Shown in pieces: positions 9,148 to 62,369 of a stretch of DNA of 64,000 nt. The position numbers and the translations under genes are program-made. The notes under the pieces are model-generated. The model worked only from the letters and a program-made list of their open reading frames with translations. It ran no database searches and had not been told where the DNA came from. Positions within the stretch are counted from its first letter, which is position 1. Each line of letters starts with the position of its first letter. The stretch is taken from positions 109,698 through 173,697 of the forward strand of contig MEUZ01000003.1 in the NCBI GenBank assembly GCA_001772615.1. The letters are read 5' to 3'. Source of the DNA: a candidate division WWE3 bacterium RIFCSPHIGHO2_01_FULL_40_23. Its GTDB lineage: Bacteria; Patescibacteriota; WWE3; UBA101185; 2-01-FULL-41-18.

Positions 9148-10769
9148 CTTTCCTTCTTATAAACGTTATAAACTGGGACCGAATCTATATTTATAGTTCC
9201 CTCAAACTTTAAGTTATATTTCATCTTAGTGGAAGATGTATCCTCCCAAACTGGATAAACAAAAAAGTTAGCCCTCTCTGCTTCCGGTCCGAGAGACTCA
9301 AGAACAGCCCATCCTTTTATTTCCCTTATAAAAGGCCAAATTTGAGTATAGTATTTTTCTGGAAATGCGACAGTCAGCTTATCATCAATTCTTCTAGAGT
9401 AAAGAAGCTTACTAAGAGTCTCATTATTCTCAAAAGTCTTATATTCTCCTTGTTCCCTAATGTTATTAAAATATGAGATTATTTCGGGCACGCCAATCAT
9501 CCATTTAGGTTCAAGAACAAAAATACCTCTTTTTAACCCCCCGCCCAGAACACTATAGTAAGAGAAATAATCGGGATGGATTTTCAGATATAAAATGAAC
9601 TGTGGAATAAAAATTAAAAAAAAGATGAGATAAGCTAATTTTTTAAACTTCTCATGAAGATAAGTTAAAAGATAATCATAAAAAAATGAGGAAGCTAAGG
9701 ATAAACCCATAATGGAGGGAAGAATATATCTATCCAGTTTTTTTGAAGGAATGGAGATTTCAATGAAATAAAGAAAAGAAAAGAACAGGCTATAAAGTGC
9801 AAACTTCTTTTTATCCTCGCTTATATTAGCTTTAACAAAAAGCCACCCGATAAAGCCTAGAATTAAATATAAAGAAGTTTTGTACATCAGTACAACGGGA
9901 TAAAACGTAAAGCCGGGATCTGACGTAAGAGAACCAAAATAAATCTGATCATGCCCCCCTTCAACTCCTACGGTAAAGATGCCTGTAAAATAAGTGCTAA
10001 GTGCTTCCCAAGGTTTCACCCACATCCCCGGCCATAACAACACAAACCAAAGCAAAACAATTAAAAACCACCTAAAATAAGAACTCACCATAGATTTAAA
10101 AGTTGTTTTTTTAAAAATAACCTCTACAAAGAGCATAAAAAGAACAAACGGAAGAATCATAAGAGAAGAACTCTTCGTTAAAACGGCGAGCGAGGCAAAA
10201 AAACCTGAAACAAAAAGACTCTTAAAGCCTTTTTGAAAGTTCACGTAATAGTAGAACCAGACAAAAGAAACAACCATAAATGTTGTCATTAAACCTTCAA
10301 GATGCAAAACTTTGGTTAAAGCTATATAAAAAGGCTCTAAAGAAAAAACAGATATTAAAATAAAAGTGGTTTTTACTCCAAACATTTTCCTTAGAGCATA
10401 AAAAAGAAAGGAGATTGAAACTCCCGTAGCAAAGACAACAAAGAATTTTTGAACAAGATCAAGCTCAAAAATAGTTCTTAGTTCATTATTTGGAGGATTG
10501 CTTCCTGTAAAAACCCTGTAGTAAAGGTTATAAACTTTGATGGAAGCGCTTCCAATTATCATTAAGCTAACGCCTGGATGGTATGTTTGAATCGTTTTTT
10601 CAAACTGACCTCCAAATAAACCCCCGCCAAAATCATATATTCTTGCCTTCCATCTCCAAACATCCGTATTAAAATTATCATGGCCTAAGGAGGGAGCCCG
10701 CGACAATATAAATAAAAGGGCAACAAGTATTTCAAATTTTATTTTTCTTATTTTATCCAAAGTTTTCAT
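9144..10769 (-). CDS. GT-C fold membrane glycosyltransferase of the PMT_2/ArnT-like (GT39/GT83-like) type.
   Basis: This is a 541-aa polytopic membrane protein with an N-terminal loop (LGHDNFNTDVWRW). It is paralogous to its neighbours. Confidence 0.55.
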   Translation of the reverse strand: MKTLDKIRKIKFEILVALLFILSRAPSLGHDNFNTDVWRWKARIYDFGGGLFGGQFEKTIQTYHPGVSLMIIGSASIKVYNLYYRVFTGSNPPNNELRTIFELDLVQKFFVVFATGVSISFLFYALRKMFGVKTTFILISVFSLEPFYIALTKVLHLEGLMTTFMVVSFVWFYYYVNFQKGFKSLFVSGFFASLAVLTKSSSLMILPFVLFMLFVEVIFKKTTFKSMVSSYFRWFLIVLLWFVLLWPGMWVKPWEALSTYFTGIFTVGVEGGHDQIYFGSLTSDPGFTFYPVVLMYKTSLYLILGFIGWLFVKANISEDKKKFALYSLFFSFLYFIEISIPSKKLDRYILPSIMGLSLASSFFYDYLLTYLHEKFKKLAYLIFFLIFIPQFILYLKIHPDYFSYYSVLGGGLKRGIFVLEPKWMIGVPEIISYFNNIREQGEYKTFENNETLSKLLYSRRIDDKLTVAFPEKYYTQIWPFIREIKGWAVLESLGPEAERANFFVYPVWEDTSSTKMKYNLKFEGTINIDSVPVYNVYKKER

Positions 10770-46888: not shown

Positions 46889-47740
46889 ATGGACCTTTCT
46901 TTAAATATAACCGGGGGATTCCCCGATTACTCCCTTATTGATAGCGGCGGGGGCTACAGGCTTGAGAGATTTAAGGATATTGTGGTAGCTAAACCTGACC
47001 CTCAAGCCATTTGGAAAAGAAGAACTAAACTCTGGGATAAAGCAGATCTAATATTTAACAAAGAAACAAATGCTTGGGAAAAAAGATCCGAAGTTCCAGA
47101 CTCTTGGAATTTAAAATGGGGAAATTTAAAATTTAAAGTCAAACCCACTCCTTTTAAGCACCTGGGTATTTTTCCCGAACAAAGCGATCACTGGGACTTT
47201 ATTAAAAGAAAAATAGAACATGAAGAAAGAGAAATAAAGGTGCTGAATCTATTCGGGTACACCGGAGCCGCAAGCGTTGTGTCGGAGGCATTCGGGGGCT
47301 TAGTAACTCACGTGGACGCTTCAAAACCTGCGCTAATATGGGTTAAGGAAAACGAGAAACTAAATAATCTTTCAGGAGAAATAAGAGTAATAAATGATGA
47401 CTGCCTTAAATTTACTGGGAGAGAGATAAAAAGAGGAGCAAAATATGACCTGATACTTGCAGACCCGCCCGCATTTGGACATGGAGCCCAAAATGAAACT
47501 TGGAAATTTAACGAGGGTTTCCCAAAGCTCTTAGCAAATGTCATTAATTTGCTATCAGACGAGCCGATTGGGATCCTAATTAACGCTTATGCTATCTCCT
47601 CCCCGTCAACTATGCTCTTAAATACTTTAAGAGATTATCTTTCGGGTGGAAAAGTAACATATGGAGAGCTTTTGCTCTCCGAAGAGACGGGAAGAAACTT
47701 CTCAACGGGGATTTATGCCCGCTGGGAGCCTAATACCTAA
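46889..47740 (+). CDS. SAM-dependent methyltransferase with a DPPAF motif, of the RlmI/RsmD-like RNA methyltransferase type.
   Basis: The sequence contains [11 protein letters not shown]...[13 protein letters not shown]. Confidence 0.6.
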
Positions 47741-49964
47741 ACTTTACCCTTTTTAAAAGAAGCGAATTGGAGACAACCGATACCGAAGATAAAGCCATAG
47801 CCATTGAAGCAAATATCGGATTTAAAAGAAGGCCGAAAAACGGGTACAAAACACCGGCCGCAACCGGTATTAAAGCAACATTATAAAAGAAAGCCCAGAA
47901 AAGATTCATTTTTATCGTTCTCATAGTTTTTCTTGAAAGTTCAATTGCAAGGGCGACAGAAGCCAAATCCTTATTTATTAATGTTATACCCGCAGATTCC
48001 ATGGCAACATCTGTTCCACTGCTCATAGCTATCCCCACATCAGAAGAAGCAAGGGCAGGAGCGTCGTTAATCCCATCCCCTACCATAGCTACGGTTAAGC
48101 CCCCAGACTGGATTTTTTTAATTTCGGCCTCTTTCTGATCAGGAAGAACTTCCGAAAGTACATTTTCTATTCCAAGACTTCTGCCTATGGCCAAAGCCGC
48201 CCTTTGATTATCCCCCGTTATCATATAAATCTTAATCCCAAGCTTTTTAAGTTTTTGGATAGCACCAGAGGCACTTTCTTTAACCCTATCCGAAATAGCA
48301 ACAATCCCGTATAAAGCTTCATCAACCGCTAAAAATACAACAGTTTTCCCTTCATTTTCCAGTTTTTGCACTTTCTCCTCGTACTCTTTAGCATTTATCC
48401 CAAAGTTAGTCATTAGCCTTCTATTTCCAAGAAGAACCTTTTGACCCAAAATCTCGCCTTCAACTCCAAACCCTGATGTCACCTTGAATTTTTCAATCTT
48501 TTGAAAAGCTACATTCTTCTTTTCACCTTCATTAACAATAGCTTCCGCAAGTGAATGCTCCGATCCCTTCTCCAAAGAAGAGGCAAGTGTAAGAACTTTA
48601 TCCTCTGAAATCCCATTTAGACCTATGACATCTGTTACCTCGGGCTTGCCTTTGGTCAAGGTTCCCGTCTTATCAAATACTACTACCCTAATCTTATGAG
48701 CAATTTCAAGGCTTCTGGCATCCTTTATTAAAATCCCGTTTTCGGCTCCCTTAGCAGTTCCAACCATAACGGCCGTTGGTGTAGCAAGCCCCATAGCGCA
48801 GGGGCAGGCAATTATAAGGACGGCAACCGTGTTTAAAAGTGCAAAAATGAAAGAAGGAGCAGGGCCAAAGTCATACCAGATTACAAAGGTTAAAACGGCA
48901 ATAATCATTACAACAGGTACAAAATAAGATGAAACAAGATCCGCAAACCTTTGAATCGGTGCCTTGCTCCCCTGTGCCTCTTCAACCATCTTTATTATCT
49001 GGGATAAAAGTGTGTCCTTTCCTACCCTTGATGCCTTAAACAAGAAGGTTCCGCTCTTATTTAACGTGGCCCCTATAACCGTATGCCCAGCTTTTTTATC
49101 AATAGGAATACTCTCCCCCGTCACCATTGACTCATCAATTGACGATTCACCTTCCAGTAATACCCCATCAACGGGAATTTTCTCGCCCGGCCTAACCCGA
49201 ACAATATCACCTATTAAAACCTCCGATATGGGAACATCAACCTCCCTCCCATCCTTTACAATTCTAGCCGTTTTTGCCTGGAGCCCGATCAACTTCTTAA
49301 TAGCTTCGGACGTCCTTAATTTTGCCTTCGCTTCAAGATACCTTCCTAAAAGAATCAATGCAATAATAATTGTAGAAACATCAAAATAAGGTTCGGGTTT
49401 GATACCAATCCCCTCCACCACTTGAGGAAAAACCGTTACAAAAGCCGAGTAAAAAAAAGCAACCGAGGTTCCAAGAGCTACAAGAGTGTCCATATTAGCT
49501 GTTCTGTGCTTTAATGCGGGGATTGTTGCCAGGTAAAAATCATACCCCACAAAAAACTGAACGATAAACGCAAGAACAAGCTGAATATAAAAATTTCTTA
49601 ATATCAACGGAGATGTCTCAATAAAACCAGGAAAACTCCCCCAAAATATAAGGAGGCCAAGTGATAAACCTACAAAAACTTTATATTTCAGTACTTTTAA
49701 CTCTCTTTCCTTCTCTTTCTTTTGCAGATCTTCTTCCGTAAGCTCCTCTTCAACCATTGCCTTATATCCTACATTTGAAACAACACTGCAAAGCTTTTCA
49801 TAAGAGACTTTATCTGGATCAAACGTCACACTTGCCTTTTCGGTTGTTAAATTAACATTTGCCTCTGACACACCCTCTGTTTCCTTTAGGGACTGCTCAA
49901 TGGTCCTTACACAGGAAGCGCAGTGCATTCCTTTAATTAATAAAGTTTTCTTTATATTTCCCAT
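47730..49964 (-). CDS. copA: Copper-translocating P1B-type ATPase.
   Basis: The N-terminal HMA domain contains GMHCASC. The TM CPC motif, the DKTGTLT phosphorylation site and the GDGINDAP motif are all present. Confidence 0.9.
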
Positions 49965-50000
49965 AACTGCCCCCGATTACTATTTAGACGATTTTGGGAT

Positions 50001-50360
50001 TTAGCTTGCAACCACTTTTCCATGAAACATATTCATTCCACAGGAAAAAGGGTACTCCCCCGCTTTTTGAGGATTAACCTTAATCTCAACTTTTTTGTCT
50101 AAAGGAAGAAATTTCCTTATCCCAAAATCCGAAAGAACCACCTCCTCAAGACAGGAGTTTGAATCCTTTCTTATAAAGTTTAGTGTTGTTTCTTTTCCGA
50201 CTGGAACTTGAATTATTTCAGGGTTATACCCACCTTCAACCGTTATATCAATACTTGACACCGCCTTAACCTCCTTTCCCTTTCTCATCAGGAAAAAATA
50301 ATAAATAAATATTGAAAGCCCAAGCCCTGAAATAGTAACTAAAATTTTGTCTATAGACAT
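50001..50360 (-). CDS. Membrane-anchored cupredoxin-like copper-binding protein.
   Basis: The protein has an N-terminal TM segment. The C-terminal sequence EYPFSCGMNMFHGKVV shows a Cys/His/Met type-1 copper pattern. Confidence 0.55.
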   Translation of the reverse strand: MSIDKILVTISGLGLSIFIYYFFLMRKGKEVKAVSSIDITVEGGYNPEIIQVPVGKETTLNFIRKDSNSCLEEVVLSDFGIRKFLPLDKKVEIKVNPQKAGEYPFSCGMNMFHGKVVAS

Positions 50361-50366
50361 AAAAGC

Positions 50367-51881
50367 TTATGTAACTTTAATCTCTTTCATAGAAATTTTT
50401 GGCACGGGAAGGCAATCCGCCAGCTGCGGGTTGCATTGATTTTCAGGATCCTCCTTCTTCCCTCCTGTTTCCAACTTCAGAGAATCAGGCTTTTTAATAA
50501 CTGTGAACTGTGACCCTCTAGTTGTCATTCCCATTGAACAGCTAAATGCGAGAGAGCCTTCTCCATTAGGAGTAAACTTTATTGATTCGGTCTTATCGGG
50601 AGGAAGGTATTTTGTGATACCAAGCTTTGGAACCGTTATTACTTTCGCGCACCCCGACGCTTTTGAGGAATCTATCCACCATTCCACAGGAACACCCTCA
50701 TAAATAGTGAACTTTGAAGGGTAATACTCAAGACCCTCTATCCTCATCTTAATCACCTGAACACCGTTTATAATTTCACCGGTTATTTCCGAGCCAAGAA
50801 CCTCCTCACTCCCATGGTTAACATCAAAAGTTACTCTGGGGAGATTCAGACTCACACCCGATAAAACCATCCCGTTATTAAAGTTAAAAAGGCCAAGTAG
50901 CACTACAACCGCGCCGGAAAACTTAAGGAAATACCCATGAACCCTCCCCTTAACAAAACTTGAAATAACACCAAGCGACATTAGGGCAGGCAGGGTGCCA
51001 AGCGAAAACATAAACATCGTGATCGCGCCAACCGCAAAACTCCCTCTCGTAAGTACATACAATTGGAGTGCCTGCGTAAAACCACACGGAAGAAAAAAGG
51101 TCAAAGCCCCGAGGACAAAGGGAGCTTGAAGCCTTCCGTTCTCATTTAAGGCTTCTATTTTATGCCCGATAAACTTAGGAATTTTAGGTTGAAGTTTCGA
51201 AACCAACGGGAAAATTCCCAAAATCTGAAGGCCCAGAATAAGCATCACAACACTAACAACCATCGTCACAAAACCTGTAAAACTAGGCGAGTAGGAAAAA
51301 AAGGAACCGAAACTTCCAAGAAGGCCTCCCAGAAGAGTGTAAGAAGCAATTCTACCTACGTTAAAAAGAGCAAAGGGCTTAAACTTTTCAACGCCGCTTA
51401 AATTTGGATTTTGTTTGCTGTATCTTGCCGCACAGGCAAGAAGAAGACCTCCCGTTACTGCAATGCATGTTGAGACTGCAGCCGTTAAGCCAAGAAGAAA
51501 CACAAAACCATAACTCATGGTATCGGAAATGGCAATTTCAGGAGCCAGCTTTAATCCTCTTAAGATAAAATACCCCGCTACAACGATAAGAAAAATTGCG
51601 CCGGTTTCAAGGTGCTCCTTCTTGTCATCACTCGCAGGAGGAATATTTCCTAAAGATGGATCAAAAACCGTGTAGCCGTATTTATTAACCGCTTGGTTTA
51701 GCTCTGAAAGCGAAGGCCTTTTAGCGCATCTTAACTGGGCTGTTCCCATTGCCTGATCGGCTTTAACCTCTCTTACACCGTTAATCTTAGAGAGCTCTCT
51801 TTCTATCAACAGTTCACAGCTAGCACAGTGCATACCTTTTATTTTAAGCTTCACTTTTTTTATCTTATTCTCATTTTCCAT
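50367..51881 (-). CDS. Three-domain fusion: an N-terminal HMA metal-binding domain, a DsbD/CcdA-like polytopic permease, and a C-terminal cupredoxin-like domain.
   Basis: The N-terminus contains GMHCASC. The middle is multi-TM and contains FLPCGFTQALQ. The C-terminal sequence LAFSCSMGMTTRGSQFTV is paralogous to the 50001..50360 cupredoxin. Confidence 0.6.
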   Translation of the reverse strand: MENENKIKKVKLKIKGMHCASCELLIERELSKINGVREVKADQAMGTAQLRCAKRPSLSELNQAVNKYGYTVFDPSLGNIPPASDDKKEHLETGAIFLIVVAGYFILRGLKLAPEIAISDTMSYGFVFLLGLTAAVSTCIAVTGGLLLACAARYSKQNPNLSGVEKFKPFALFNVGRIASYTLLGGLLGSFGSFFSYSPSFTGFVTMVVSVVMLILGLQILGIFPLVSKLQPKIPKFIGHKIEALNENGRLQAPFVLGALTFFLPCGFTQALQLYVLTRGSFAVGAITMFMFSLGTLPALMSLGVISSFVKGRVHGYFLKFSGAVVVLLGLFNFNNGMVLSGVSLNLPRVTFDVNHGSEEVLGSEITGEIINGVQVIKMRIEGLEYYPSKFTIYEGVPVEWWIDSSKASGCAKVITVPKLGITKYLPPDKTESIKFTPNGEGSLAFSCSMGMTTRGSQFTVIKKPDSLKLETGGKKEDPENQCNPQLADCLPVPKISMKEIKVT

Positions 51882-51941
51882 ATACTTAGTATAACCTAAT
51901 TATAGACTAGGTTTGATAAATGATTGCAAGGTCATCAAATT

Positions 51942-52325
51942 TTATTTCAGGTTTTGCCAAAGGCCAATCACATTGCCTTCAGTATCGGTAACTCTTGCAT
52001 AAAGTCCCATATCCCCTACTTTCATTTCTGGTGTAACAACCTTTCCCCCGGCTTCCTCAACTTTATCTAAAGATCTTTGAAGCGACGCAACAGATAGAAC
52101 TATCACAACCGATTCAGATGGTGACTGCCTTTTCATCATTCCGCCGTTAATTGCACCCGACTCCTTGGGCATTCCCTTGTCATCAGTCTCAACAGTGTGA
52201 ACAAAATAATAATCCGATGTATCAAGAGGCGCTTTATGTATCTCCCACCCGAAAACATCACCGTAAAACTTTTGGGCTCTTTCTACATTGTCCGCGGGAA
52301 CTTCAAAATGAACTACTTTATCCAT
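51942..52325 (-). CDS. VOC (glyoxalase/bleomycin-resistance fold) family protein.
   Basis: The sequence reads MDKVVHFEVPADNVERAQKFYGDVFGWEI...GNVIGLWQ. Confidence 0.65.
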   Translation of the reverse strand: MDKVVHFEVPADNVERAQKFYGDVFGWEIHKAPLDTSDYYFVHTVETDDKGMPKESGAINGGMMKRQSPSESVVIVLSVASLQRSLDKVEEAGGKVVTPEMKVGDMGLYARVTDTEGNVIGLWQNLK

Positions 52326-52464
52326 ATTTCCTCCTAAAATTTTTTACTTGAATTTATATTCTAGACCTTGAATAGATATATATCAATATATGTGCCATTC
52401 CTGCAAGTTTGTCATTCCCGCGCTTGCCCGCCCTCTTGGCGGGAAAGCGGGAATCTAAAAAATG

Positions 52465-52500
52465 GGGCAGTGCCTGATTTACAAACACTGCCCAAAAAAG
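52465..52500 (-). terminator. Rho-independent terminator hairpin on the minus strand. A second GC-rich hairpin lies at 52414..52454.
   Basis: On the minus strand GGGCAGUG, a 13-nt loop, then CACUGCCC is followed by CAUUUUUUAG. The adjacent imperfect palindrome reads ATTCCCGCGCTTGCCCGCC-ctctt-GGCGGGAAAGCGGGAAT. Confidence 0.45.
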
Positions 52501-52509
52501 CGCTATTTG

Positions 52510-52728
52510 TCAGCGTACAGAAACTATCCAGGCCTGTCGCTGAATTGCCTCATACACCCTCTTTGGATATGGAGGAAGAAAAGCTGGGGCAACGTTATCC
52601 ACCCCATTGTGCGCGGCAAGCGCCATAATGACGCCACTCGGGTTTTCCCCCTCCCCTCTCACTGCTTCAGCCTTTAAGTCTTCAAGCGAAACCGGAATCC
52701 CTTCAAGAAGCTGGTCAACCACAGTCAT
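52510..52728 (-). CDS. Small GC-rich ORF of 72 aa. It may be a gene fragment or a small protein.
   Basis: The ORF is followed by a minus-strand terminator. Its local GC content is much higher than the surroundings. No family was recognised. Confidence 0.3.
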   Translation of the reverse strand: MTVVDQLLEGIPVSLEDLKAEAVRGEGENPSGVIMALAAHNGVDNVAPAFLPPYPKRVYEAIQRQAWIVSVR

Positions 52729-52881
52729 TTTCGTCTTCTCCTTTGTGAAGTTTAGTAAATACTATCAAAAAGCGAGAAGCGGTGTCATCTCGTTTAATTT
52801 AATGGCACCCTCCTAAACCTCAAATCCAGCGGTAAGAAACAAGAAAAACTCCCCATTTACTTTGGTATTATAATTTCCACT

Positions 52882-53616
52882 ATGCTGACCAAAGCACAAC
52901 TTCAAAGCAACTTAAATAAAAATCCAATGGTCCTTAGACGACTAAGAACCTTAAAACTGGCGGAAGGGATCAATCCTAAATTCCGCACTCCCCATATTGT
53001 AGGTGGTTACCTTAGGAATATATTGCTAGGACATGAGCCAAAAGACTGTGATGTTGTATTTCAGGGCTATCAGCTAAACCAACCGGGTATTTTAGAAGCG
53101 GTAAGAGAGGCTGAAAGAAGACTAAAAATTGACTCCTACCCAAATTGGGACTTTGAAAATGTTCTGGCAACAGGTGTTACAAATGATTTTTATGAAAATA
53201 CTATTGGAAGATACTCACACCACACTGACTACTTGACACTTTTACTTATAGACACAAGCGGTACGTTATACCTGGGGGATAATAAAACACTTTCGGGTCT
53301 TGAAGGGAGAACTTTTGATTTGCGTTTTCCCGGAGTAGAAATTTGGGTAAACCACCGCGCAAAAGGAAAAAGCTATGTTTACTGCCTAATAGGAGATTTA
53401 ATAAGAGGATTGTATCTTGGGCAGCTTCTTAACCTTAAATACTCACTAATAGCGGAATTCTTATTGAGTTATTTTGACGTTTTCTTTAAAAGTTTAAGCC
53501 CGGAAGATCAACAGACAAGACAAGCCTTTTGGATGAAAAAGACGGGATGTGACCCTAAGTATCAACATATCCTTGACCGCTTCGGAGTGAAATCTTTGAA
53601 AGCAACCGCTTCATAA
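52882..53616 (+). CDS. Short nucleotidyltransferase with a poly(A) polymerase/CCA-adding-enzyme head-domain motif.
   Basis: HIVGGYLRNILLGHEPKDCDVVF matches the GGxVRDxLLG..pKDxD head-domain signature. At 244 aa the protein is too short for a full CCA-adding enzyme. Confidence 0.5.
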   Translation: MLTKAQLQSNLNKNPMVLRRLRTLKLAEGINPKFRTPHIVGGYLRNILLGHEPKDCDVVFQGYQLNQPGILEAVREAERRLKIDSYPNWDFENVLATGVTNDFYENTIGRYSHHTDYLTLLLIDTSGTLYLGDNKTLSGLEGRTFDLRFPGVEIWVNHRAKGKSYVYCLIGDLIRGLYLGQLLNLKYSLIAEFLLSYFDVFFKSLSPEDQQTRQAFWMKKTGCDPKYQHILDRFGVKSLKATAS

Positions 53617-53843
53617 GCTGTGATTAGAAACTACTTGACCTCTGAGCCAAATAATCACTCTTTTGTATATAGTTTCAGTTTTAGGGAATTCAAATTATAA
53701 TAAATACCATAAATAAACAAATTATAGGCATAAATCTAGAAGAAGGACTAATTAAGAAAAAGGGAAGTTTTAAATATGGCCTAGCGTTCATATTTTCAAC
53801 CTTCATATGGACCTATTTTTTTATTAATACATTCATCCTAAAT

Positions 53844-54995
53844 TTGGATTATTTCCTTTTAAATAGGGTCGATCCTGATTTGATCACGTTGCTAAACTAC
53901 AAATTTATCCTGACACTTTTACTATTCTCCATATTTCTGTTGCTTATCAATACAAGTATTTTTCCTTACATGTTGCACATCTTGATTTTCTCATTAATAC
54001 TACCCATTTACATTATTCTTATGTTTTGGAAATCGAAAAACTGGCTACTAACTTTTTCAATTGTTGATAATTTAATTGAGGGTTTAACACACTTTAAAAG
54101 AAAATTTATATTAGTAACCTTGTTGATTATGTCAACGGTAGTAATATTTAACTTCGAAAGTGCGGTATTACTATACGCTACCAGTTTATTCTTATTAATC
54201 TATTTACTAATAACATACTTCATTGCTTTTACTAAACCTTTTAAAAAATCAATATTATTTGAATCATTTTCTAACTTATCCATTAAACTTACCAAATCAT
54301 CCTTCACTAAGAGACTTATAGAAATTAATGAAGAATTAAGAGGCAAAGAACTTAACACATTCAACCAAACCCAAGAAATACTATATGCAAACAACCTCCA
54401 ATTAGCTGTGATCGCTCATAGAGGTATGTATTTTATAGCAAACAAATTATCAATGTATAAAAAGAGTAGAATTTACCTTTACCATATTTCAATAAATATT
54501 ATATTTCTCTTTTTATTTTCTGCTTTTATTTTTAGCCTTATAAATTTTGCGTTATATAAGATTAGCTCTAGCAATTTCGCCTACTCTGGTACTTTTGGTT
54601 GGTTTGACTTTTTATACTACAGCTCTTTTGCAATGTTTTCAGGTGGTTCTGAAAATCTTTCTCCAGTATCCATCTTATCCAAAGTAATAAAAATGATAAT
54701 GTTAGTATCTGCAGGTATTATCATTTTAACTATAATTCTTAATGTTTCCTTCCTAGTAAAAGGTGAGAAGTATAAAGAAGATATTGACGAATTAGCTGAA
54801 ACTTTAAAGAAAAACAGTGAATATTTTCAAAATTTTATATCTGAAGAATATAACTTATCAATTTTTCAGGCAATAGAAATACTGCATAAGCTGAAATCCG
54901 GTTTTATTACCCTTATATTCATGCTTTCTCAGGACATACCAGGAATAGAAAATTTAAGGTCAGAAGATGAATCAAAGAAAGACAACAATAAGTAA
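53844..54995 (+). CDS. Polytopic membrane protein of unknown function in an AT-rich accessory segment.
   Basis: The 383-aa protein has 8 or more hydrophobic helices. Its codon usage is extremely AT-rich compared with its neighbours. Confidence 0.45.
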   Translation: MDYFLLNRVDPDLITLLNYKFILTLLLFSIFLLLINTSIFPYMLHILIFSLILPIYIILMFWKSKNWLLTFSIVDNLIEGLTHFKRKFILVTLLIMSTVVIFNFESAVLLYATSLFLLIYLLITYFIAFTKPFKKSILFESFSNLSIKLTKSSFTKRLIEINEELRGKELNTFNQTQEILYANNLQLAVIAHRGMYFIANKLSMYKKSRIYLYHISINIIFLFLFSAFIFSLINFALYKISSSNFAYSGTFGWFDFLYYSSFAMFSGGSENLSPVSILSKVIKMIMLVSAGIIILTIILNVSFLVKGEKYKEDIDELAETLKKNSEYFQNFISEEYNLSIFQAIEILHKLKSGFITLIFMLSQDIPGIENLRSEDESKKDNNK

Positions 54996-55079
54996 TATTA
55001 ACATGTCAAATTAAAAATTTCTCTTCTGCTCTTGTATTTTCTTAGTTGAGCCTTCTCTCAGAAACCCGCGAGAATAAGT

Positions 55080-55140
55080 TGGTGACCCCCCTCAGAGACG
55101 TATTTCGAACACCTTTGCAAGAACCTAGTTCACACATACG
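55080..55140. repeat. Degenerate direct repeat (copy A) derived from the tRNA-Glu 3' end, a putative relict att site.
   Basis: The sequence tGGTGACCCccctcagagacgtaTTTCGAACaCCtttgcaagaaCCTAgTTCAcAcaTACG is compared with copy B at 56131..56188 and with the antisense of the tRNA-Glu 3' end, tGGTGACCCtggggggaTTCGAACcCC. Confidence 0.55.
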
Positions 55141-55193
55141 AATGTTTAAAAGAGGCATACTTTACGAATTATTACAAAAAAAGTGAGTGAAAA

Positions 55194-55409
55194 CTATTCT
55201 ATATCAAACATATAAGAACATATCAACCTCGCGCTAACGCCAGAGGGAAGATTTACACTTGATCCGCCACACTTGTTAAAATTCCCACCTCTTACAAAAC
55301 AATCTAATTTATATAGAGTGGTTTTTGTCAGACCACCACTAGTACCATAATATACATTTCCCAGAGAATATAGCCATACCCTTAATCCAATCAAAAACAA
55401 AACGACCAA
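55194..55409 (-). CDS. Small secreted or membrane Cys-containing protein of 71 aa.
   Basis: The hydrophobic N-terminus reads MVVLFLIGLRVWLYSL. It lies in a cassette between the att-like repeats. Confidence 0.3.
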   Translation of the reverse strand: MVVLFLIGLRVWLYSLGNVYYGTSGGLTKTTLYKLDCFVRGGNFNKCGGSSVNLPSGVSARLICSYMFDIE

Positions 55410-55448
55410 AGATATCCAGATTAATGGTTTTTTAGCATATTTTATTTT

Positions 55449-55628
55449 CTAGAAATATATGGACTGCTCCTTTAATTCAGAATCCCAGAACCATTTACAG
55501 ACGTCATAATTGCCTGTCCGCTCATTAAATCTGCATCTTCTTAGAAGTGAATTGTTATTTCCAAATATAGGAACTAAACTCAAAAGCAGTAAGATGACAA
55601 GAATCAACAATATAACTAAATACTTCAT
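55449..55628 (-). CDS. Small signal-peptide peptide of 59 aa. It is not in the ORF track because it is under 60 aa.
   Basis: The sequence is MKYLVILLILVILLLLSLVPIFGNNNSLLRRCRFNERTGNYDVCKWFWDSELKEQSIYF. Its ATG overlaps the stop of the upstream gene (ATGA). Confidence 0.35.
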   Translation of the reverse strand: MKYLVILLILVILLLLSLVPIFGNNNSLLRRCRFNERTGNYDVCKWFWDSELKEQSIYF

Positions 55629-55936
55629 AATTTAATCTTTTTATTCCTTAAAACAATACTAACATTAACTAGTACTAAAGAGATTACAAACCAGAATACT
55701 AGATCAATGATCAGATTTTTTCGATCGATGGCTGTACCTCCAGGAGTTAAAATCCTTCCTTCGGAATCATGCATTAATACACCGCCCCCTCGGACAATAT
55801 AGTAGGTGAGAGGAAGCCCTTTTTTACCTGTGCATCCTGCCAAGCAGTCAATCGGGGGTTGAGTGTAAAATGATGGATAAACAAAAATTAACGAAAGAAT
55901 AATAAATAGAGATATTGAGATAAGTATCTTCTTCAC
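55625..55936 (-). CDS. Small membrane protein of 103 aa, with an N-terminal signal anchor and a C-terminal TM segment.
   Basis: The sequence reads MKKILISISLFIILSLIFVYP...DLVFWFVISLVLVNVSIVL. It is translationally coupled to the downstream peptide. Confidence 0.4.
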   Translation of the reverse strand: MKKILISISLFIILSLIFVYPSFYTQPPIDCLAGCTGKKGLPLTYYIVRGGGVLMHDSEGRILTPGGTAIDRKNLIIDLVFWFVISLVLVNVSIVLRNKKIKL

Positions 55937-56130
55937 TAATTACATTCTAACACTCGGCTATTAACTAATAAATTACATTTCACAATAGGTAGTGGTAACC
56001 CAGAGGGAATTCGGTCACAACTCTCGCTTCGCTCGGTCGCGACCCCGCCTCCTTCGCTGACGCTCAGCCCGGCATTCGAACCCCTGCATGCTGATCTTAA
56101 AGTTTTTCCCTCTGCCAATGGACTACTTGC

Positions 56131-56188
56131 TGGTGACTCACAGTGACGTATTTCGAACACCTTACCGGCAGCCTAATTCATACCTACG
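56131..56188. repeat. Degenerate direct repeat (copy B) derived from the tRNA-Glu 3' end.
   Basis: The sequence is tGGTGACtCacagtgacgtaTTTCGAACaCCttaccggcagCCTAaTTCAtAccTACG. It shares about 80 percent identity with copy A over about 57 nt. Confidence 0.55.
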
Positions 56189-56385
56189 TAAAACTCCAGG
56201 AGCTCGGTTTTACCTACCATAATGTCAATATAGCCGTAATTGAAGACTATGGACAGGAGAATCCCCATGTTTAAGTCCTCTTTGTACGACGAGCTATAGT
56301 CTCTCAAAATATAATATCCACGGCCTCCCGAAAAGGTATATTCAAAACATATTTCTTTACGAGCAAGAAAAATTTTACCAAACCG

Positions 56386-57510
56386 TCAGTTTAAGTCGCC
56401 GCACCAGGCGAGAAATAGTGAATCTGATAAAGGTAAATGACGGATACCGATAGCAAGAGGACGGCCTAAACGTAGATTTTGGAGAGAAATATTCAGAATT
56501 GTTTCTGATTTTCCAGGGGCAGAATTGGTTTTAAGTCCGTTAATCACTTCTGTTAAGGGATACGCTACCAATCCAATGGCAAGGCAAGACCCCTTATAAA
56601 TATTTGCGGGTGGTTTTCCAGCCATAAAGTCTAATTGAATCACAATTTTTGTTTTTTCATTGCCTAGATCAGTAAGTGTCGCAATACTCACACCATTTCC
56701 TTCTCCGCTGTTTTGAGGGGTTAAGGGTATATAATATGTATCGTTTGTAAAAGTTTTCAAATTTTCAGCAACATATGGTGTTTGGGATATGTCAGGCGTT
56801 TCAGTTGAAGTAGTTGAAGTATTTGATCTCCACTGAAAAGTTCTCAATATTGTATCTGTTTCTTTAAAGAAATCAGCATAAAGACTGACGGGTGTCCAGC
56901 CCTCAACCTCTGCTTTTATTTGGTGTAAATAATTTATACAAATCTGTTTTTTGGTAATGTCAAGCAAGTCGCATCTGATCCTTTCGACGACAGGCTTGGA
57001 GAGTACAAAAGTGAGATCCTTATTTTTATCGGTAATAAGATCTATTGACGTGACTCTTTGACTTCCCACCACACTTGTGCGGCTTATTACATTGTTGTCC
57101 ATGTTGATCACCAACATGTCTTTTGATACTGGACCTTGATCCATGGAGGTTTCATCCACCCACGTGTCAGTTTTTGTATTATAGATTGATCGGGAAAGTT
57201 GACCAGAAAATTGTATATCTTCGATACCTTTAACGAGGGTAATTGTTGCAACGCTCAAATATTTTATGTCTGCCTCAGTAAATAATTTAGGGGTTATGAG
57301 AAATTTTTCTAGACATACTCCGTTAAATTTGTTATCGCAATCAGTTTTCGTAATAGAGAAACTGTTTGGCACCTGAAAAGAATAACCGTACGTATCGCTT
57401 CTATAAGTGTCGACAATTTGATTTTTACCCTGATTCAGTCCGGTCAAATAAATAATTCTAGCTATACATAACAATGCAAAAGCGCTGATAATTAAAATTA
57501 CTTTTTTCAT
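56386..57510 (-). CDS. Secreted protein of unknown function (about 375 aa) with an N-terminal signal peptide.
   Basis: The start is taken at MKKVILIISAFALLCIA. The track ORF runs further into the tRNA gene, and that extension was rejected. Confidence 0.55.
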   Translation of the reverse strand: MKKVILIISAFALLCIARIIYLTGLNQGKNQIVDTYRSDTYGYSFQVPNSFSITKTDCDNKFNGVCLEKFLITPKLFTEADIKYLSVATITLVKGIEDIQFSGQLSRSIYNTKTDTWVDETSMDQGPVSKDMLVINMDNNVISRTSVVGSQRVTSIDLITDKNKDLTFVLSKPVVERIRCDLLDITKKQICINYLHQIKAEVEGWTPVSLYADFFKETDTILRTFQWRSNTSTTSTETPDISQTPYVAENLKTFTNDTYYIPLTPQNSGEGNGVSIATLTDLGNEKTKIVIQLDFMAGKPPANIYKGSCLAIGLVAYPLTEVINGLKTNSAPGKSETILNISLQNLRLGRPLAIGIRHLPLSDSLFLAWCGDLN

Positions 57511-57596
57511 ATTTCTAAGTTCGCTTATTAGCGGTTTGCTTCTTTGGTGCACTGGTGGGGGGAACAGCAACCCTACCTCTTTTGTGATTTCCAAAA

Positions 57597-57673
57597 TGGT
57601 GACCCTGGGGGGATTCGAACCCCCGGTCTTCGCCCTGAGAAGGCGACGTCCTAAACCGCTAGACGACAGGGCC
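57597..57673 (-). tRNA. tRNA-Glu (anticodon CUC).
   Basis: The sequence is GGCCCTGTCGTCTAGCGGTTTAGGACGTCGCCTTCTCAGGGCGAAGACCGGGGGTTCGAATCCCCCCAGGGTCACCA. It folds into a cloverleaf with a 7-bp acceptor stem, a TTCGAAT T-loop and an encoded CCA end. Confidence 0.85.
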
Positions 57674-57773
57674 ACAAAACCCACTTCTGCTTCATGGGAT
57701 CCCCACTTTCGTGGGGATGACGGTGCGACCGTCATTTTTGCATTATACCATCAGGAATAATATACTTTAGAAA

Positions 57774-58211
57774 ATGGGAAATCTTACACCTGCCAAAATT
57801 AAACTATCCGCGGTACTACTCGTAGTAGCCGTTGTTTCCATTTTATCTGTTTACAACTTTCAAAAATTTAAACCAAACGTCTCAAGCGCACGAAGAGCCA
57901 AGGAAGGGGAACAAGCAGGTATCCACCTTCCTTCGGACCTTCCAATACCTTTGAATTCCAAAGAATTAAGCACTGTCCAAAGTACTGACAATATCCAGAT
58001 GAATCTTGAATCAGAAGAAAAATCCGAAAGCATTTACAACTTTTACAAAAACATCCTTCTTGATAAAGGCTGGAGTATAAAAAGCAATGCCGTTACGGAA
58101 AACGGATATGTCACAAACTATCAGAAAGACGAAAACGAACTGATAATTTCAATAACACGGGACAATTCAATTAATAAAAGCATAGTGGGGATTGAATTCT
58201 CCAAGGACTAA
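57774..58211 (+). CDS. Hypothetical signal-anchored protein of 145 aa.
   Basis: The N-terminal TM segment reads LSAVLLVVAVVSILSV, and the C-terminal domain is soluble. Confidence 0.45.
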   Translation: MGNLTPAKIKLSAVLLVVAVVSILSVYNFQKFKPNVSSARRAKEGEQAGIHLPSDLPIPLNSKELSTVQSTDNIQMNLESEEKSESIYNFYKNILLDKGWSIKSNAVTENGYVTNYQKDENELIISITRDNSINKSIVGIEFSKD

Positions 58212-59969
58212 TTACTCTTTAGTTCCCTTCTTATATACTGCCCTCCACGGCTGGTACCTGCTCACAAAAGTATCTTTATATAAAACCTCCTCGCCTTTTT
58301 TAACAGTCCTTTCAAAGGAAACATTAGCTCCCCAGGCCGCCCAATCAACCTGGACCACCTTTCCCTTTTGAAGCGTTGGATCATCCTCATAAACCGCTTC
58401 CGGAGGCGCAACAACATTGGTTACAACAGGTTTGGTTAACTCAACAGTTCTCCCATCAGGAGTCCCATAAATCTTAAACCTTAACATAACCTTATCAAGA
58501 TCCCAATCAGCCTGAACAAGAAGGTATCCCGGAGTATCATTTCTAAACTGAAAATCTACCGAAGGTGAAAAAACCGTAGCATCAAGACCTACATCCGAAT
58601 TCTCCTCATAATAATGCACTCTGTAAGCGTGAGCAGTTCTTTTAACAATCGGAAGCCCGGCGTTTAGCACGGCCCTAAAAAGTGTGGTTGAAACCTGGCA
58701 GACACCCCCGCCCTCGCCAAGAACCGTCCTTCCGTTTTCTATAATATAGGCCTGATCATACCCTGTTTTATAACTTATCTCCCCAACGGACTTGTTAAAA
58801 GAATACGTATCTCCAGGAGCAACAAGAACACCACTTGACCTCCCCGCAGCAAGGGTTAAATTCTTAATCCTTCCGGGAATTGAGCCACTAAAGTAAGAAA
58901 CACCCTCACCTAATAAAGCGTAAATGCCATATTTATTCGTATCTGAAGGTGCTTTACTTGGATTAACCAAAAGAACCACTTCCTTGACATCCGATTTCAA
59001 AGCTTTAGAAAAATCTTTCTTAAACTGCTCCTTATCCATGGATCTGCCATCGCTTTTTGGCCTGAATTCAACCACCCTTTCGCCATCGGTTCTAAACACC
59101 TCACCCCTTGGTTCAACGTCAACTTCCTCTGAAAGATCACCGGAAAGCTTGTTTAATGCGGTTTTATCGGTTCCCACAACCACCTTTCCGTCTTCTTTTT
59201 TATATGAAAGCATGCTTAAAATATCCTGTTTGGAAAATGTCCAAACTTTATCTTCAAACTTAACCCGCGGAGAACTGCCTATGATCCTTTCAACTTCGCT
59301 CTTCACCAAAAGGAGATCCGCCTCCCCATTTTTTGGAACGACTCTTTTAACTGGTAGCTTATAACTTTGGGATGAAAAATTATCAATAGAATTAAGAATC
59401 TTAGAATTTAAAACTTCTTTTTCAAGTTTTTTTCCCTCGGATGCTTTGGTGATAATAAGCTCCCCATTATTTGCGAGCACAAAGGTAGGCTCTTCAGACT
59501 GAATATTTACCGTCCCCTCTATTGAAGAAATAAACTGACCCAGCTTATTGTCATTGTAATAATAAATCGGCGGAAGCCTAATGCCTTTAACAAAAGCCGC
59601 CAGCTTGTCTTTTGAATCCACAATAAAACTTCCTGTTCTTCCAAGATTAAAAAGCTTTTCAACCGTTTCTTTCACTTCGTAATTTAAATCTATGTCTGAA
59701 GAAGTTAGATCAAACTCTTTTCCTTCATATGTAAAATTCAAGAGGAGATCTTTCTCGGAAAGTTCTTTTCTTAAAGCTTCATAAGCTTGCGAGGAAGTTT
59801 TGCCCCCCATCTTTAAATTTCCTATTTTAACACCGGGAATTATTCTTTGAGCATAAAAAAAATGATAAAGGATGAAGAAAAAAGTAACAGTAAAAAAAAC
59901 AACCGCAAACGGTTTAGCTAGTTTTTTTCTGAAAAAATTATGAGTTTGATGCCAAAGTCTTTTCATCAC
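58212..59969 (-). CDS. VanW-family domain protein of 585 aa, membrane-anchored.
   Basis: The sequence GGGVCQVSTTLFRAVLNAGLPIVKRTAHAY is a VanW-domain signature. An N-terminal TM segment is present. Confidence 0.65.
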   Translation of the reverse strand: MMKRLWHQTHNFFRKKLAKPFAVVFFTVTFFFILYHFFYAQRIIPGVKIGNLKMGGKTSSQAYEALRKELSEKDLLLNFTYEGKEFDLTSSDIDLNYEVKETVEKLFNLGRTGSFIVDSKDKLAAFVKGIRLPPIYYYNDNKLGQFISSIEGTVNIQSEEPTFVLANNGELIITKASEGKKLEKEVLNSKILNSIDNFSSQSYKLPVKRVVPKNGEADLLLVKSEVERIIGSSPRVKFEDKVWTFSKQDILSMLSYKKEDGKVVVGTDKTALNKLSGDLSEEVDVEPRGEVFRTDGERVVEFRPKSDGRSMDKEQFKKDFSKALKSDVKEVVLLVNPSKAPSDTNKYGIYALLGEGVSYFSGSIPGRIKNLTLAAGRSSGVLVAPGDTYSFNKSVGEISYKTGYDQAYIIENGRTVLGEGGGVCQVSTTLFRAVLNAGLPIVKRTAHAYRVHYYEENSDVGLDATVFSPSVDFQFRNDTPGYLLVQADWDLDKVMLRFKIYGTPDGRTVELTKPVVTNVVAPPEAVYEDDPTLQKGKVVQVDWAAWGANVSFERTVKKGEEVLYKDTFVSRYQPWRAVYKKGTKE

Positions 59970-60475
59970 TGGTTTTTAATCAAAAAAGATGATGCCGCTT
60001 TATCCATATCCAAAAAATCATCGGCTTGCTCCACTAATTTTCCTGATGTGTTCCTTCCAAACCCGATAACTTCAGTCCTTACTCCCCTGCTTTTTGCATA
60101 GTCCAAAAGGTCGGCATAATCACCGTCTCCAGAGACTAAAACCATAACATCAACTTTATCCATAAGCCTTATTGCATCCATACAAAGCCCCACGTCCCAG
60201 TCTCCCTTTTTAGCCCCACCGTAAAAAACCTGAAGCTCCTTAGCCCTGACCTCAAAACCCTGTAAAGACAATGCTTCAAAGAAATCTTTTTCAGCTCCAA
60301 CATCCGCCTTTATTACATAAGCAAATGCCCTTATTAACATTCTTCTTGAAACCGCTGTCTTTAATACACGGCTGAAATCAACCTTGGATTGATGCAAATT
60401 TTTGGCGCTGTAGTACATGTTTGAGACGTCCACAAAAACGCCAACCCTTTGCTCTTTATGTCTATGAGATTGCAT
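59966..60475 (-). CDS. NYN-domain (LabA-like, PIN-related) protein.
   Basis: The sequence reads VGVFVDVSNMYYSA...VLVSGDGDYADLL. It overlaps the VanW gene by 4 nt. Confidence 0.65.
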   Translation of the reverse strand: MQSHRHKEQRVGVFVDVSNMYYSAKNLHQSKVDFSRVLKTAVSRRMLIRAFAYVIKADVGAEKDFFEALSLQGFEVRAKELQVFYGGAKKGDWDVGLCMDAIRLMDKVDVMVLVSGDGDYADLLDYAKSRGVRTEVIGFGRNTSGKLVEQADDFLDMDKAASSFLIKNQ

Positions 60476-60479
60476 AAAG

Positions 60480-62369
60480 TTATAGTAACACAGAAATTAA
60501 GGCTGTAAAAAGCGGCACATGGTAAAATGACAACCAAAGCATTGTTGTCATCCCGGATCTCAAACATTGGGGGGTCGTATAACGGTAGTACAGCGCCCTC
60601 TGGAGGCGTTTATCGGGGTTCGAATCCCTGCCCCCCAGCCATGAAAAACTGGCAGCTTGTAGGACATTGGTATTTGTTACAGCATCAATACTTTTTTCAG
60701 GTTCGAACTTTGTAACGACATTTTGAATTGTATCCTTTCCCTTCTCTATCAAATACCATGCTTTTTCCCCGTCAATATGTAATTTTCTGTCCTTAATAAA
60801 TAGGTTCGAACCAAGTGCGTTTAGTATTGCAACTTTAGTTTTCGCATCTCCATTAGCAAACCAGTAACGGGCATAACATGCGAAATCAAATGCACGAGTT
60901 GACGTTTCCAACCAAGTATTTTGTCGTGTGCTTAGCTTTTGTTTTTCCACCAAAAGCGCTTCCTTTTCGCTCAATAACGATACTTTTTGTTTGTTCAATT
61001 CGTCTGGCGTTAATAATACGTGTGTAGTATTTTGAGGTGAAATATACAGTTTTGTAAGGTTATCAATCCTGCTTTCCACATCCTTAAGTGCAGAATTGAT
61101 ATTACTGCTTATTATCAGTCTATCGGTAAATTCAACATCTGTTAATTCGTTTAGGTATTTTATTGCCCAATCACGCAAGCGGGTAGATATTTCTATTTTC
61201 TTTAGTGCAAAATCTACAGTATTTTCCAGCTCCTTCAACGTTAAACTACCCTCGGTGCAGGAAGGAGTGGTTTTACCAGCACAGACGTAGTAAATATAAT
61301 GCAATATCTTCTTATGTTTCATATTTTCGATTAAAGTGCCGCAAGCAGAGCAGGCTTTCCTGGTTTTAGTTAATGCGAATTTATTCTTACAATCGCATAT
61401 AATTTGCAATTTTTCCTCAAATGTAATGCTGCCTCCGCAACCACCGCATCTTAATGCCTTTTTGAAAATACCCTCTTTTTTAGACGTAGGCGATTTTACA
61501 GTCTTACCTAGAATAATTTGTATTTTTTCAAATTCTTCTTTGCTAATCATTTTTTTATGATTACCCCAACCTTCAACTAATTTTCCGTCTACGACACGTA
61601 CCATCCAACCATAATAAAACGGGTCTGATACTATGCGATAGAAAGAACTTTTAGATAGAGGTCTGCCGCCTTGTCTTGCTGTTCTTCTCGTACGATAGCC
61701 CCATACATTATTTAGAAGCTCCAAAACCTCCATCCTGGTATAGTTTCCAGTTAAAAGTAGTTGTAACGCCTTGCTTAATAATCCCCATTGTTTTTCATCA
61801 ATATCGATGTACTTTTCTTTTGTGATCGGATTTTCCTTGTTTATGTATCCTGGCTTGGCGAATCCTGCCCATTCCTTTTGCTCGAAAAACTTTTCTTTAT
61901 TACCTCGCCGTACAGCATCCGATTTATCATCCGAGTCCCGAGTTGCACGTGTAAACTCCTGCATCAGGTATTCTTTATCTCTGCCTGTGTTTTCATAAAT
62001 TGCATGAGGTGTTATTACATAGCTTAGAAGCCCATCAGACATAAGTTGAACAAATTCGCCGCCTTCTTTATAATTCCTGTTGAGCCGATTAGCATGCCAA
62101 CATAAAACAACTTGGACTTTACCCGTTTTGATTTCTTCGATCAATTTTCTGTAGTCTTTTCTTCCCGTTTCAAATGCCGAGGCTTTTTCTTCATAATCGG
62201 ATGTAATCTTAAGATCATATCTATCTATAATTTGCTCGTGAATGTCTGCATTTTGCCCAGGTAATGATCTTATTTGCTTGTCTTCCGCATCCTTTGTGGA
62301 TTTACGTTTATAACAGCTTATGCCTAAGGTTTTTATTTCTTCAATTAGTTCAGGGCTAAAATAAGCCAT
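60480..62369 (-). CDS. Large serine recombinase (phage-type integrase). The last ~55 codons of the ORF run antisense through tRNA-Gln, so the real C-terminus is uncertain.
   Basis: The N-terminal resolvase domain reads ISCYKRKSTKD...GKVQVVLCWHANRLNRN. A recombinase domain and a zinc ribbon (CGGCGGS...CDC...CSACG) follow. Confidence 0.8.
   Translation of the reverse strand: MAYFSPELIEEIKTLGISCYKRKSTKDAEDKQIRSLPGQNADIHEQIIDRYDLKITSDYEEKASAFETGRKDYRKLIEEIKTGKVQVVLCWHANRLNRNYKEGGEFVQLMSDGLLSYVITPHAIYENTGRDKEYLMQEFTRATRDSDDKSDAVRRGNKEKFFEQKEWAGFAKPGYINKENPITKEKYIDIDEKQWGLLSKALQLLLTGNYTRMEVLELLNNVWGYRTRRTARQGGRPLSKSSFYRIVSDPFYYGWMVRVVDGKLVEGWGNHKKMISKEEFEKIQIILGKTVKSPTSKKEGIFKKALRCGGCGGSITFEEKLQIICDCKNKFALTKTRKACSACGTLIENMKHKKILHYIYYVCAGKTTPSCTEGSLTLKELENTVDFALKKIEISTRLRDWAIKYLNELTDVEFTDRLIISSNINSALKDVESRIDNLTKLYISPQNTTHVLLTPDELNKQKVSLLSEKEALLVEKQKLSTRQNTWLETSTRAFDFACYARYWFANGDAKTKVAILNALGSNLFIKDRKLHIDGEKAWYLIEKGKDTIQNVVTKFEPEKSIDAVTNTNVLQAASFSWLGGRDSNPDKRLQRALYYRYTTPQCLRSGMTTMLWLSFYHVPLFTALISVLL
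60567..60640 (+). tRNA. tRNA-Gln (anticodon CUG).
   Basis: The sequence is TGGGGGGTCGTATAACGGTAGTACAGCGCCCTCTGGAGGCGTTTATCGGGGTTCGAATCCCTGCCCCCCAGCCA. It shows the U1:A72 pair and G73 typical of bacterial tRNA-Gln, and the CCA end is encoded. Confidence 0.85.

Follow-up and report, generated by a model that had tools for sequence, protein, structure and literature searches.

A putative pile-up of decayed insertions downstream of a tRNA-Glu gene in a candidate division WWE3 genome

For the analysis of a possible insertion site in a candidate division WWE3 bacterium (RIFCSPHIGHO2_01_FULL_40_23), whose genome stems from metagenomes of the Rifle aquifer, we used a stretch of 64,000 nt from contig MEUZ01000003.1 (positions 109,698 to 173,697, forward strand), referred to here as the window, and focused on the region downstream of its tRNA-Glu(CTC) gene. 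A preliminary description had noticed two imperfect direct repeats in this region, here named R1 and R2, and had taken them for degenerate copies of the tRNA-Glu 3' half that were left behind by serial integrations of small cassettes. Besides scans of larger sequence collections, the analysis covered the 64-kb window and 931 kb of sequence from relatives, whose loci are labelled L044-L073. From the 3' end of tRNA-Glu towards lower coordinates, the locus contains a 375-aa gene, R2, a GC-rich patch (55993-56086), open reading frames (ORFs) of 103, 59 and 71 aa, R1 and a 383-aa gene. The GC content is 27-34% over 53.6-55.8 kb, compared with about 40% in the flanks. Only two tRNA genes were detected in the window by ARAGORN, tRNA-Glu(CTC) and tRNA-Gln(CTG). 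The ORFs of 71, 59, 103 and 375 aa reported in the preliminary description exist and all have hydrophobic N-termini, while the coding status of the 71-aa ORF is doubtful because it was not called by any gene caller.

Direct repeats and a partial tRNA match downstream of tRNA-Glu

The two direct repeats proved to be genuine, both lying on the plus strand and belonging to one family. R1 and R2 share 79% identity across 48 nt without gaps, and 75% identity across 61 nt (E 8e-8) once the match is extended over an indel of 3 nt and the initial TGGTGAC(C/T)C, with an exact 19-nt core (GACGTATTTCGAACACCTT) common to both. The 18-mer core was found in the window only in R1 and R2, against an expected number of 0.03. 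No further copy of the core was detected in the window even when 3 mismatches were allowed, and an nhmmer profile built from R1 and R2 found no third copy in either the window or the sequence of the relatives. The window contains exactly three copies of the head motif TGGTGACYC, all of them on the plus strand, one in each repeat and one at the 3' end of tRNA-Glu (57597); 0.36 occurrences were expected, and three were reached in 0 of 100 shuffles. The homology between R1 and R2 begins exactly at this motif. The repeats have the same orientation as the 3' end of tRNA-Glu, which is encoded on the minus strand, as had been described.

R1 and R2 each fall within a short plus-strand ORF, of 46 aa (55046-55186) and 44 aa (56088-56222), respectively, with LVT..DVFRTP..P.S..R in common, and the repeats could be the conserved parts of two paralogous genes. 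Twelve of the 19 aligned codons encode the same residue, and tblastx gave an E value of 5e-6 in that frame, which is kept between the two ORFs because the indel is 3 nt long. Nevertheless, the substitutions are distributed evenly over the codon positions (4/4/6) with no excess at the third, the similarity ends at the repeat edges within both ORFs, other frames are also scored by tblastx, and neither ORF was called by any gene caller in any assembly. We consider this origin very unlikely.

A different match to the tRNA, overlooked by the preliminary description, was found 1.6 kb downstream of tRNA-Glu. This site, R3a (TGGTAACCCAGAGGGAATTCG), agrees with the antisense tRNA-Glu end (TGGTGACCCTGGGGGGATTCG) at 17/21 positions in direct orientation and is anchored at the last base. 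R3a is the sole site in the window with no more than 4 mismatches to the last 21 nt of tRNA-Glu, and when the whole window was shuffled 300 times with its dinucleotides preserved, a comparable site appeared once (0.33%); this significance hinges partly on a window length picked after inspection of the data. In an nhmmer profile of WWE3 tRNA-Glu genes, R3a was matched weakly at model positions 54-75 (E 3.2). Judged from its sequence, R3a is the best candidate for a partial-tRNA attachment (att) scar at this locus. At 58 nt beyond R3a, R3b is the top local match to tRNA-Glu within 52000-57590 (p 0.003-0.03 against composition-preserving shuffles), and it was matched in the same profile at model positions 47-63 (E 4.3). 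The profile returned seven weak non-tRNA matches in the window, three of which, R3a, R3b and R2 (positions 49-74), lie on the correct strand within 55993-56161; we estimated the chance of such clustering at about 3e-4.

The GC-rich patch was also considered as a full-length tRNA-Glu pseudogene. This was rejected because the 57 nt between R3a and R3b are GC-rich but not tRNA-like, with the similarity past the first 21 nt giving p 0.3-0.6 against shuffles. A scan of viral contigs with the GC-rich filler gave no match. The filler contains CTTCGCTGACGCTCAG, which resembles CTTCGACAAGCTCAG, an end of the GIY-YIG insert at L067 described below.

Contig ends of seven independent assemblies bunch at 55995-56053, within the GC-rich patch. 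Three Logan unitigs, one with its start at 56013 and two that stop at 56040 and 56042, meet here and overlap by 30 nt (k-1). This overlap suggests that the 30-mer 56013-56042 recurs elsewhere in those samples; neither another copy of it nor an alternative junction was recovered. The cluster of contig ends was dropped as a sign of an empty-site variant, both for lack of such a junction and because other shared break points exist (55518, ~56915 and 58260). The bunching does hint at a recurring sequence, as which R1 and R2 themselves could be seen: they might be a dispersed short repeat resembling a miniature inverted-repeat transposable element, with two copies here by chance, an alternative named in the preliminary description. 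The contig ends, though, lie outside R1 and R2, and no copy beyond these two was found in the window or in the 931 kb of the relatives. A scan of 185,579 species genomes with the 18-mer core gave 10 single matches in unrelated phyla, a number consistent with chance by our estimate (~17 expected), and the one match in viral contigs was likewise judged to be due to chance. Since R1 and R2 also have no terminal inverted repeats, a generic mobile repeat of this kind is highly improbable.

Table 1 Features of the tRNA-Glu locus, with positions in the window.
Feature	Position	Strand	Description	Basis
tRNA-Glu(CTC)	57597..57673	-	Putative attachment site; 3' end with encoded CCA at 57597	ARAGORN; Rfam tRNA 62 bits
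375-aa gene	56386..57513	-	Segment A; N-terminal hydrophobic helix	ORF list
R2	56131..56188	+	Direct repeat copy proximal to tRNA; starts TGGTGACTC	Repeat search, 9-mer count
R3b	56071..56084	+	GGCATTCGAACCCC; matches tRNA-Glu T arm (antisense) at 13/14	Local alignment, nhmmer
GC-rich filler	56014..56070	.	57 nt separating R3a from R3b; edges GGAATTCG / GGCATTCG	Sequence, composition
R3a	55993..56013	+	TGGTAACCCAGAGGGAATTCG; matches last 21 nt of tRNA-Glu (T loop to CCA) at 17/21	Mismatch scan
103-aa gene	55625..55936	-	Segment B; hydrophobic N- and C-terminal segments	Called in several assemblies
59-aa gene	55449..55628	-	Segment B; N-terminal hydrophobic segment	ORF list
71-aa ORF	55194..55409	-	Coding status doubtful	ORF list
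R1	55080..55140	+	Distal direct repeat copy; starts TGGTGACCCC	Repeat search, 9-mer count
383-aa gene	53844..54995	+	Helical membrane protein; AT-rich (27-29% GC); convergent	ORF list, composition
Conserved core block	57774..60641	.	Bounded by tRNA genes at both ends	Pfam; gene order in relatives
AF_1845-like gene	57774-58211	+	Core block	Pfam
VanW gene	58212-59969	-	Core block	Pfam
NYN gene	59966-60475	-	Core block	Pfam
tRNA-Gln(CTG)	60568-60641	+	Core block	ARAGORN

Occupied tRNA genes in related genomes

The block tRNA-Gln / NYN / VanW / AF_1845-like / tRNA-Glu(CTC) is kept in L044, L045 and a dozen metagenome loci (including L048, L051-L054, L057, L058 and L067), while the sequence outside both block tRNAs is different in every genome compared. 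Close relatives are lacking, the nearest VanW orthologues being 67%, 63% and 55% identical. A 244-aa gene of the left flank was tried as a synteny anchor and abandoned; homologues were found, and their neighbourhoods are completely different.

In L053, genes for a 543-aa large serine recombinase (Resolvase, Recombinase and Zn_ribbon_recom domains), an 871-aa TraG/TrwB-like coupling protein and a Replic_Relax protein are located directly at tRNA-Glu; the insert is an integrative conjugative or mobilizable element (ICE/IME). In L054, a 22-nt repeat (exact 15-mer) of the T-loop-to-CCA segment of its own tRNA-Glu was found 2.5 kb downstream, enclosing three genes (truncated Ldh_2, glyoxalase and PP2C-like) and no integrase. 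In L067, the 3' end of tRNA-Glu is repeated exactly over 17 nt at 0.37 kb downstream; the integrase-free insert (9329-9777) carries a GIY-YIG endonuclease gene that is broken and is bounded by inverted repeats of 12 nt (TTCGACAAGCTC / GAGCCTGTCGAA), and it adjoins dnaA. tRNA-Glu serves as an integration site in related genomes. The repeats of L054 and L067 reached only E 1.3 and 0.9, respectively, in the tRNA-Glu profile, and that of L054 covers model positions 54-75, a span identical to that of R3a. Given these weak scores and the identical span, R3a may be the same kind of object in a more decayed state. A metagenome scan with a 47-nt piece of tRNA-Glu found nothing and likewise missed the source contig.

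At the other end of the block, a 629-aa large serine recombinase ORF (Resolvase and Recombinase; 60480-62369, minus strand) runs antisense through the entire tRNA-Gln and ends 88 nt past the 5' end of the tRNA. To its right lie an Omega-repressor gene and other small genes, so that an element appears to be integrated at the tRNA-Gln of the window. The 629-aa recombinase gene was not called by NCBI or JGI. A recombinase ORF passing through a tRNA gene in the same way was also observed at tRNA-Gln of L058 (6624-8165; a different recombinase with 22% identity) and at tRNA-Glu of L053 (12725-14356).

Origin of the repeats and of the segments between them

The repeats, the 21-nt R3a match, the synteny break at tRNA-Glu and the occupied sites in relatives lead us, on balance, to favour the view that small insertions, by now decayed and immobile, have piled up at a tRNA attachment site in the 4 kb downstream of tRNA-Glu(CTC); R3a would then be a partial-tRNA scar and R1 and R2 the ends of two related inserts. 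An origin of R1 and R2 by site-specific recombination, the order of events and the type of recombinase responsible are what we infer from these observations. In this WWE3 lineage, mobile elements would use the T-loop-to-CCA stretch on the 3' side of tRNA-Glu for recombination, and each insertion would displace older material away from the tRNA, leaving a partial copy of the tRNA end at its far boundary. R1 and R2 would each consist of a short tRNA-derived core (TGGTGAC(C/T)C; in tRNA sense ...G(G/A)GTCACCA) joined to a conserved element arm of about 50 nt, a composition that could explain why the two repeats are so much closer to each other than to the tRNA. Genes for the recombinases would have been lost, and the remaining cargo would be secreted or membrane protein genes with no recognisable family. 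The proposal of tRNA-Glu as an insertion site with relict scars is thereby retained from the preliminary description with respect to R3a, R3b and the occupied sites in relatives, and is not supported for R1 and R2 as copies of the tRNA.

Several results weigh against this pile-up, to which the choice of window length for R3a must be added. In local alignment with the antisense tRNA-Glu, R1 or R2 scores 9, shuffles averaging ~7 (p 0.10-0.14), and 4.5% of genomic 61-mers align to tRNA-Glu equally well. The Rfam tRNA model gave no match on R1, R2 or R3 at E<=10, even when just 260-280 nt were searched. With a profile of 12 WWE3 tRNA-Glu genes, R2 was placed at E 140 and R1 was unreported, and R2 alone reached p 0.16 against the tRNA-Glu set of the relatives. 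No remnant of a recombinase, relaxase or GIY-YIG gene was found in 52300-57600, where tblastn with three serine recombinases, a TraG-like protein, a relaxase and a GIY-YIG protein (tyrosine integrases not queried) returned nothing below E 0.35. The population contigs retrieved from NCBI, JGI, ENA and Logan are collinear with 99.97-100% identity, and neither an empty site nor an excision was found among them; the suggested comparison of strains for presence or absence of each cassette between the repeats thus yielded no variant across the locus. The synteny break at tRNA-Glu could also be an ordinary rearrangement, since VanW identity is no more than 55-67% even with the closest relatives.

The likeness of R1 and R2 to the tRNA is largely confined to their heads. 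The preliminary claim that they are degenerate copies of the tRNA-Glu 3' half was not supported, with the alignment at shuffle level and the repeats recognised neither by tRNA models nor by the WWE3 profile. After removal of the first 9 nt, the similarity of R1 and R2 to tRNA-Glu was at chance level (p 0.22-0.26), and tRNA-Glu was not matched by the profile of R1 and R2. TTCGAA, within the motif TTCGAAC(A)CC of R1 and R2, lies, by eye, 4-7 nt too distant from the CCA end for a T loop, and its flanks pair poorly. Neither as RNA nor as DNA do R1, R2 and the GC-rich patch fold more stably than shuffles; R1 and R2 show no tRNA-like fold, with z-scores of +0.2 to +0.9. Against shuffled controls, which the preliminary description had named as a refuting comparison, the body of the repeat thus stands nearly at background, and its terminal 7-10 nt do not. 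The R1 start TGGTGACCCC is the reverse complement of GGGGTCACCA, the 3' terminus of the tRNA-Glu genes of most relatives. Among 56 distinct tRNAs from all loci, tRNA-Glu genes account for seven of the eight best matches to R1 and R2, the best match of R1 being tRNA-Glu of L057 (20/28 ungapped), and R1 gave a marginal p value of 0.01 against the tRNA-Glu set of the relatives.

As a separate observation, the acceptor stem of the window tRNA-Glu is unlike nearly all of those in L045-L073 at two base pairs (6-67 and 7-66), both of which are compensated. R1 has G where the acceptor 3' strand of most relatives has G67, and the window tRNA-Glu has A.

As the strongest alternative, R1 and R2 might be a plain local duplication unrelated to the tRNA, for example of an intergenic or 3'-flank segment or of a small regulatory site, with TGGTGAC(C/T)C and TTCGAA being coincidental and R3a possibly real but independent. 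The shuffle-level alignment, the repeat profile missing the tRNA, the tRNA profile barely reaching the repeats, the lack of a tRNA-like fold and the finding that segments A and B have nothing in common beyond the repeats all agree with such a duplication. However, it leaves unexplained that TGGTGACYC is limited to R1, R2 and the tRNA end and stands exactly at the start of the R1-R2 homology, and that R1 bears the 10-mer terminating the tRNA-Glu genes of relatives. Orientation and location also fit the att-repeat geometry of L054 and L067, and no promoter or terminator signal was found on the repeats. We regard a duplication of this kind as possible but rather doubtful.

In Prochlorococcus, tycheposon islands arise through successive tRNA-adjacent integrations, in which older ones are pushed outward and leave remnants and scattered partial tRNAs (bioRxiv 10.1101/2020.12.28.424599). 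They belong to the tRNA-targeted islands and integrative elements that use a partial tRNA 3' end as att repeat and that may form tandem arrays. The WWE3 locus resembles such tRNA-targeted islands in its position at the 3' end of a tRNA gene, in the tRNA 3'-end orientation of R1, R2 and R3a, in R3a as a candidate direct partial-tRNA repeat, in its stacked small cargo-only segments of atypical composition that look like integrase-less remnants, and in the occupation of the same tRNA by intact elements in relatives. It differs from them in that the segments contain no integrase or fragment of one and measure only ~0.9-1.5 kb, decay of the scars is far advanced, the strains showed no polymorphism, and the identity of R1 and R2 to the tRNA covers at most 7-10 nt.

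Work on ICESt1 and ICESt3 of Streptococcus thermophilus reportedly describes cis-mobilizable elements (CIMEs), cargo-only segments flanked by att sites that are formed by accretion next to ICEs. The segment between R1 and R2 is similarly short, carries no recombination genes, is enclosed by related att-like direct repeats and lies beside a site used by recombinase-bearing elements in relatives. Unlike CIMEs, it lacks a partner ICE at the tRNA-Glu of this genome, identity between its repeats is only 75-79%, and as recombinase sites they are no more than putative. The large-serine-recombinase ICE/IME at tRNA-Glu of L053 and at tRNA-Gln of the window and L058 have the conserved gene block and the tRNA targets in common with the locus, and show that the site is used by mobile elements in this lineage; in contrast to them, the tRNA-Glu side of the window lacks a recombinase, a coupling protein and a relaxase alike. 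The identical cores that serine recombinases leave are usually very short, and hence these enzymes alone do not account for repeats of 57 nt.

A more far-reaching idea is that R1 and R2, with their invariant 19-nt core, are functional att sites of integrase-less cassettes for secreted or membrane proteins, which would be moved in trans by the WWE3 large-serine-recombinase elements at tRNA-Glu and tRNA-Gln. We think this highly unlikely; if true, ultra-small episymbiotic genomes would possess a system for exchanging cassettes of surface-protein genes. Relict insertions at tRNA sites are a well-known, textbook phenomenon, of which this locus is at best a degraded example. If the pile-up is real, it would mean that even a streamlined genome of the Candidate Phyla Radiation (<1 Mb) gathers and keeps the debris of site-specific insertion at tRNA genes, and it would suggest that lineage-specific secreted and membrane proteins arrive via insertions at such sites. 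The comparative result may outweigh the repeats in usefulness: a conserved five-gene block lies between two tRNA genes that are both used by WWE3 serine-recombinase elements, and this tRNA-bracketed block offers a defined locus for the study of gene flow in the phylum.

Encoded proteins and flanking regions

The products of the 375-, 103-, 59- and 71-aa ORFs had no match in Pfam, PHROGs, PADLOC or NCBIfam, and the bacteriocin, immunity or surface-exclusion role proposed for them in the preliminary description found no support in these searches. The 375-aa protein gave only three database hits, and two partial relatives only were found; its C-terminal 114 aa are 60% identical to P0002, and its two halves match two neighbouring genes of L047, where no tRNA lies nearby. 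The AlphaFold (AF2) model of the 375-aa protein, with a predicted local distance difference test (pLDDT) score of 39, was unusable. No match to phage records was obtained by blastn with 55000-57600.

The 383-aa protein belongs to a widespread uncharacterised membrane family with 733 representative homologues and no Pfam entry. AlphaFold models it with confidence as an all-helical protein (pLDDT 91.8). The protein showed weak but consistent similarity to the pore regions of K+ channels, and the family consensus contains no K+-channel selectivity-filter motif. Since the homologues start ~50 residues earlier, the gene may be 5'-truncated. It had been proposed as a third, older cassette, for which composition was the sole argument; the gene is not bounded by any repeat.

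The variable segment is adjoined on its left, at 47730-52325, by a cluster of genes for copper handling (P-type ATPase, cupredoxin and HMA-DsbD protein) and by a glyoxalase/bleomycin-resistance gene. Because these genes lie beside tRNA-Glu in no relative, the acquired region may exceed the interval 55080-57673. Two related GC-rich hairpins, GTCATTCCCGCG...GAAAGCGGGAATC at 52412-52456 and GGGATCCCCACTTTCGTGGGGATGAC at 57697-57722, are the sole ones of their type in the window, and a scan with a stem motif matching both found none in the sequence of the relatives. The hairpins are inverted relative to each other and enclose the whole 5.3-kb variable segment including tRNA-Glu, with the second lying within the tRNA-Glu leader.

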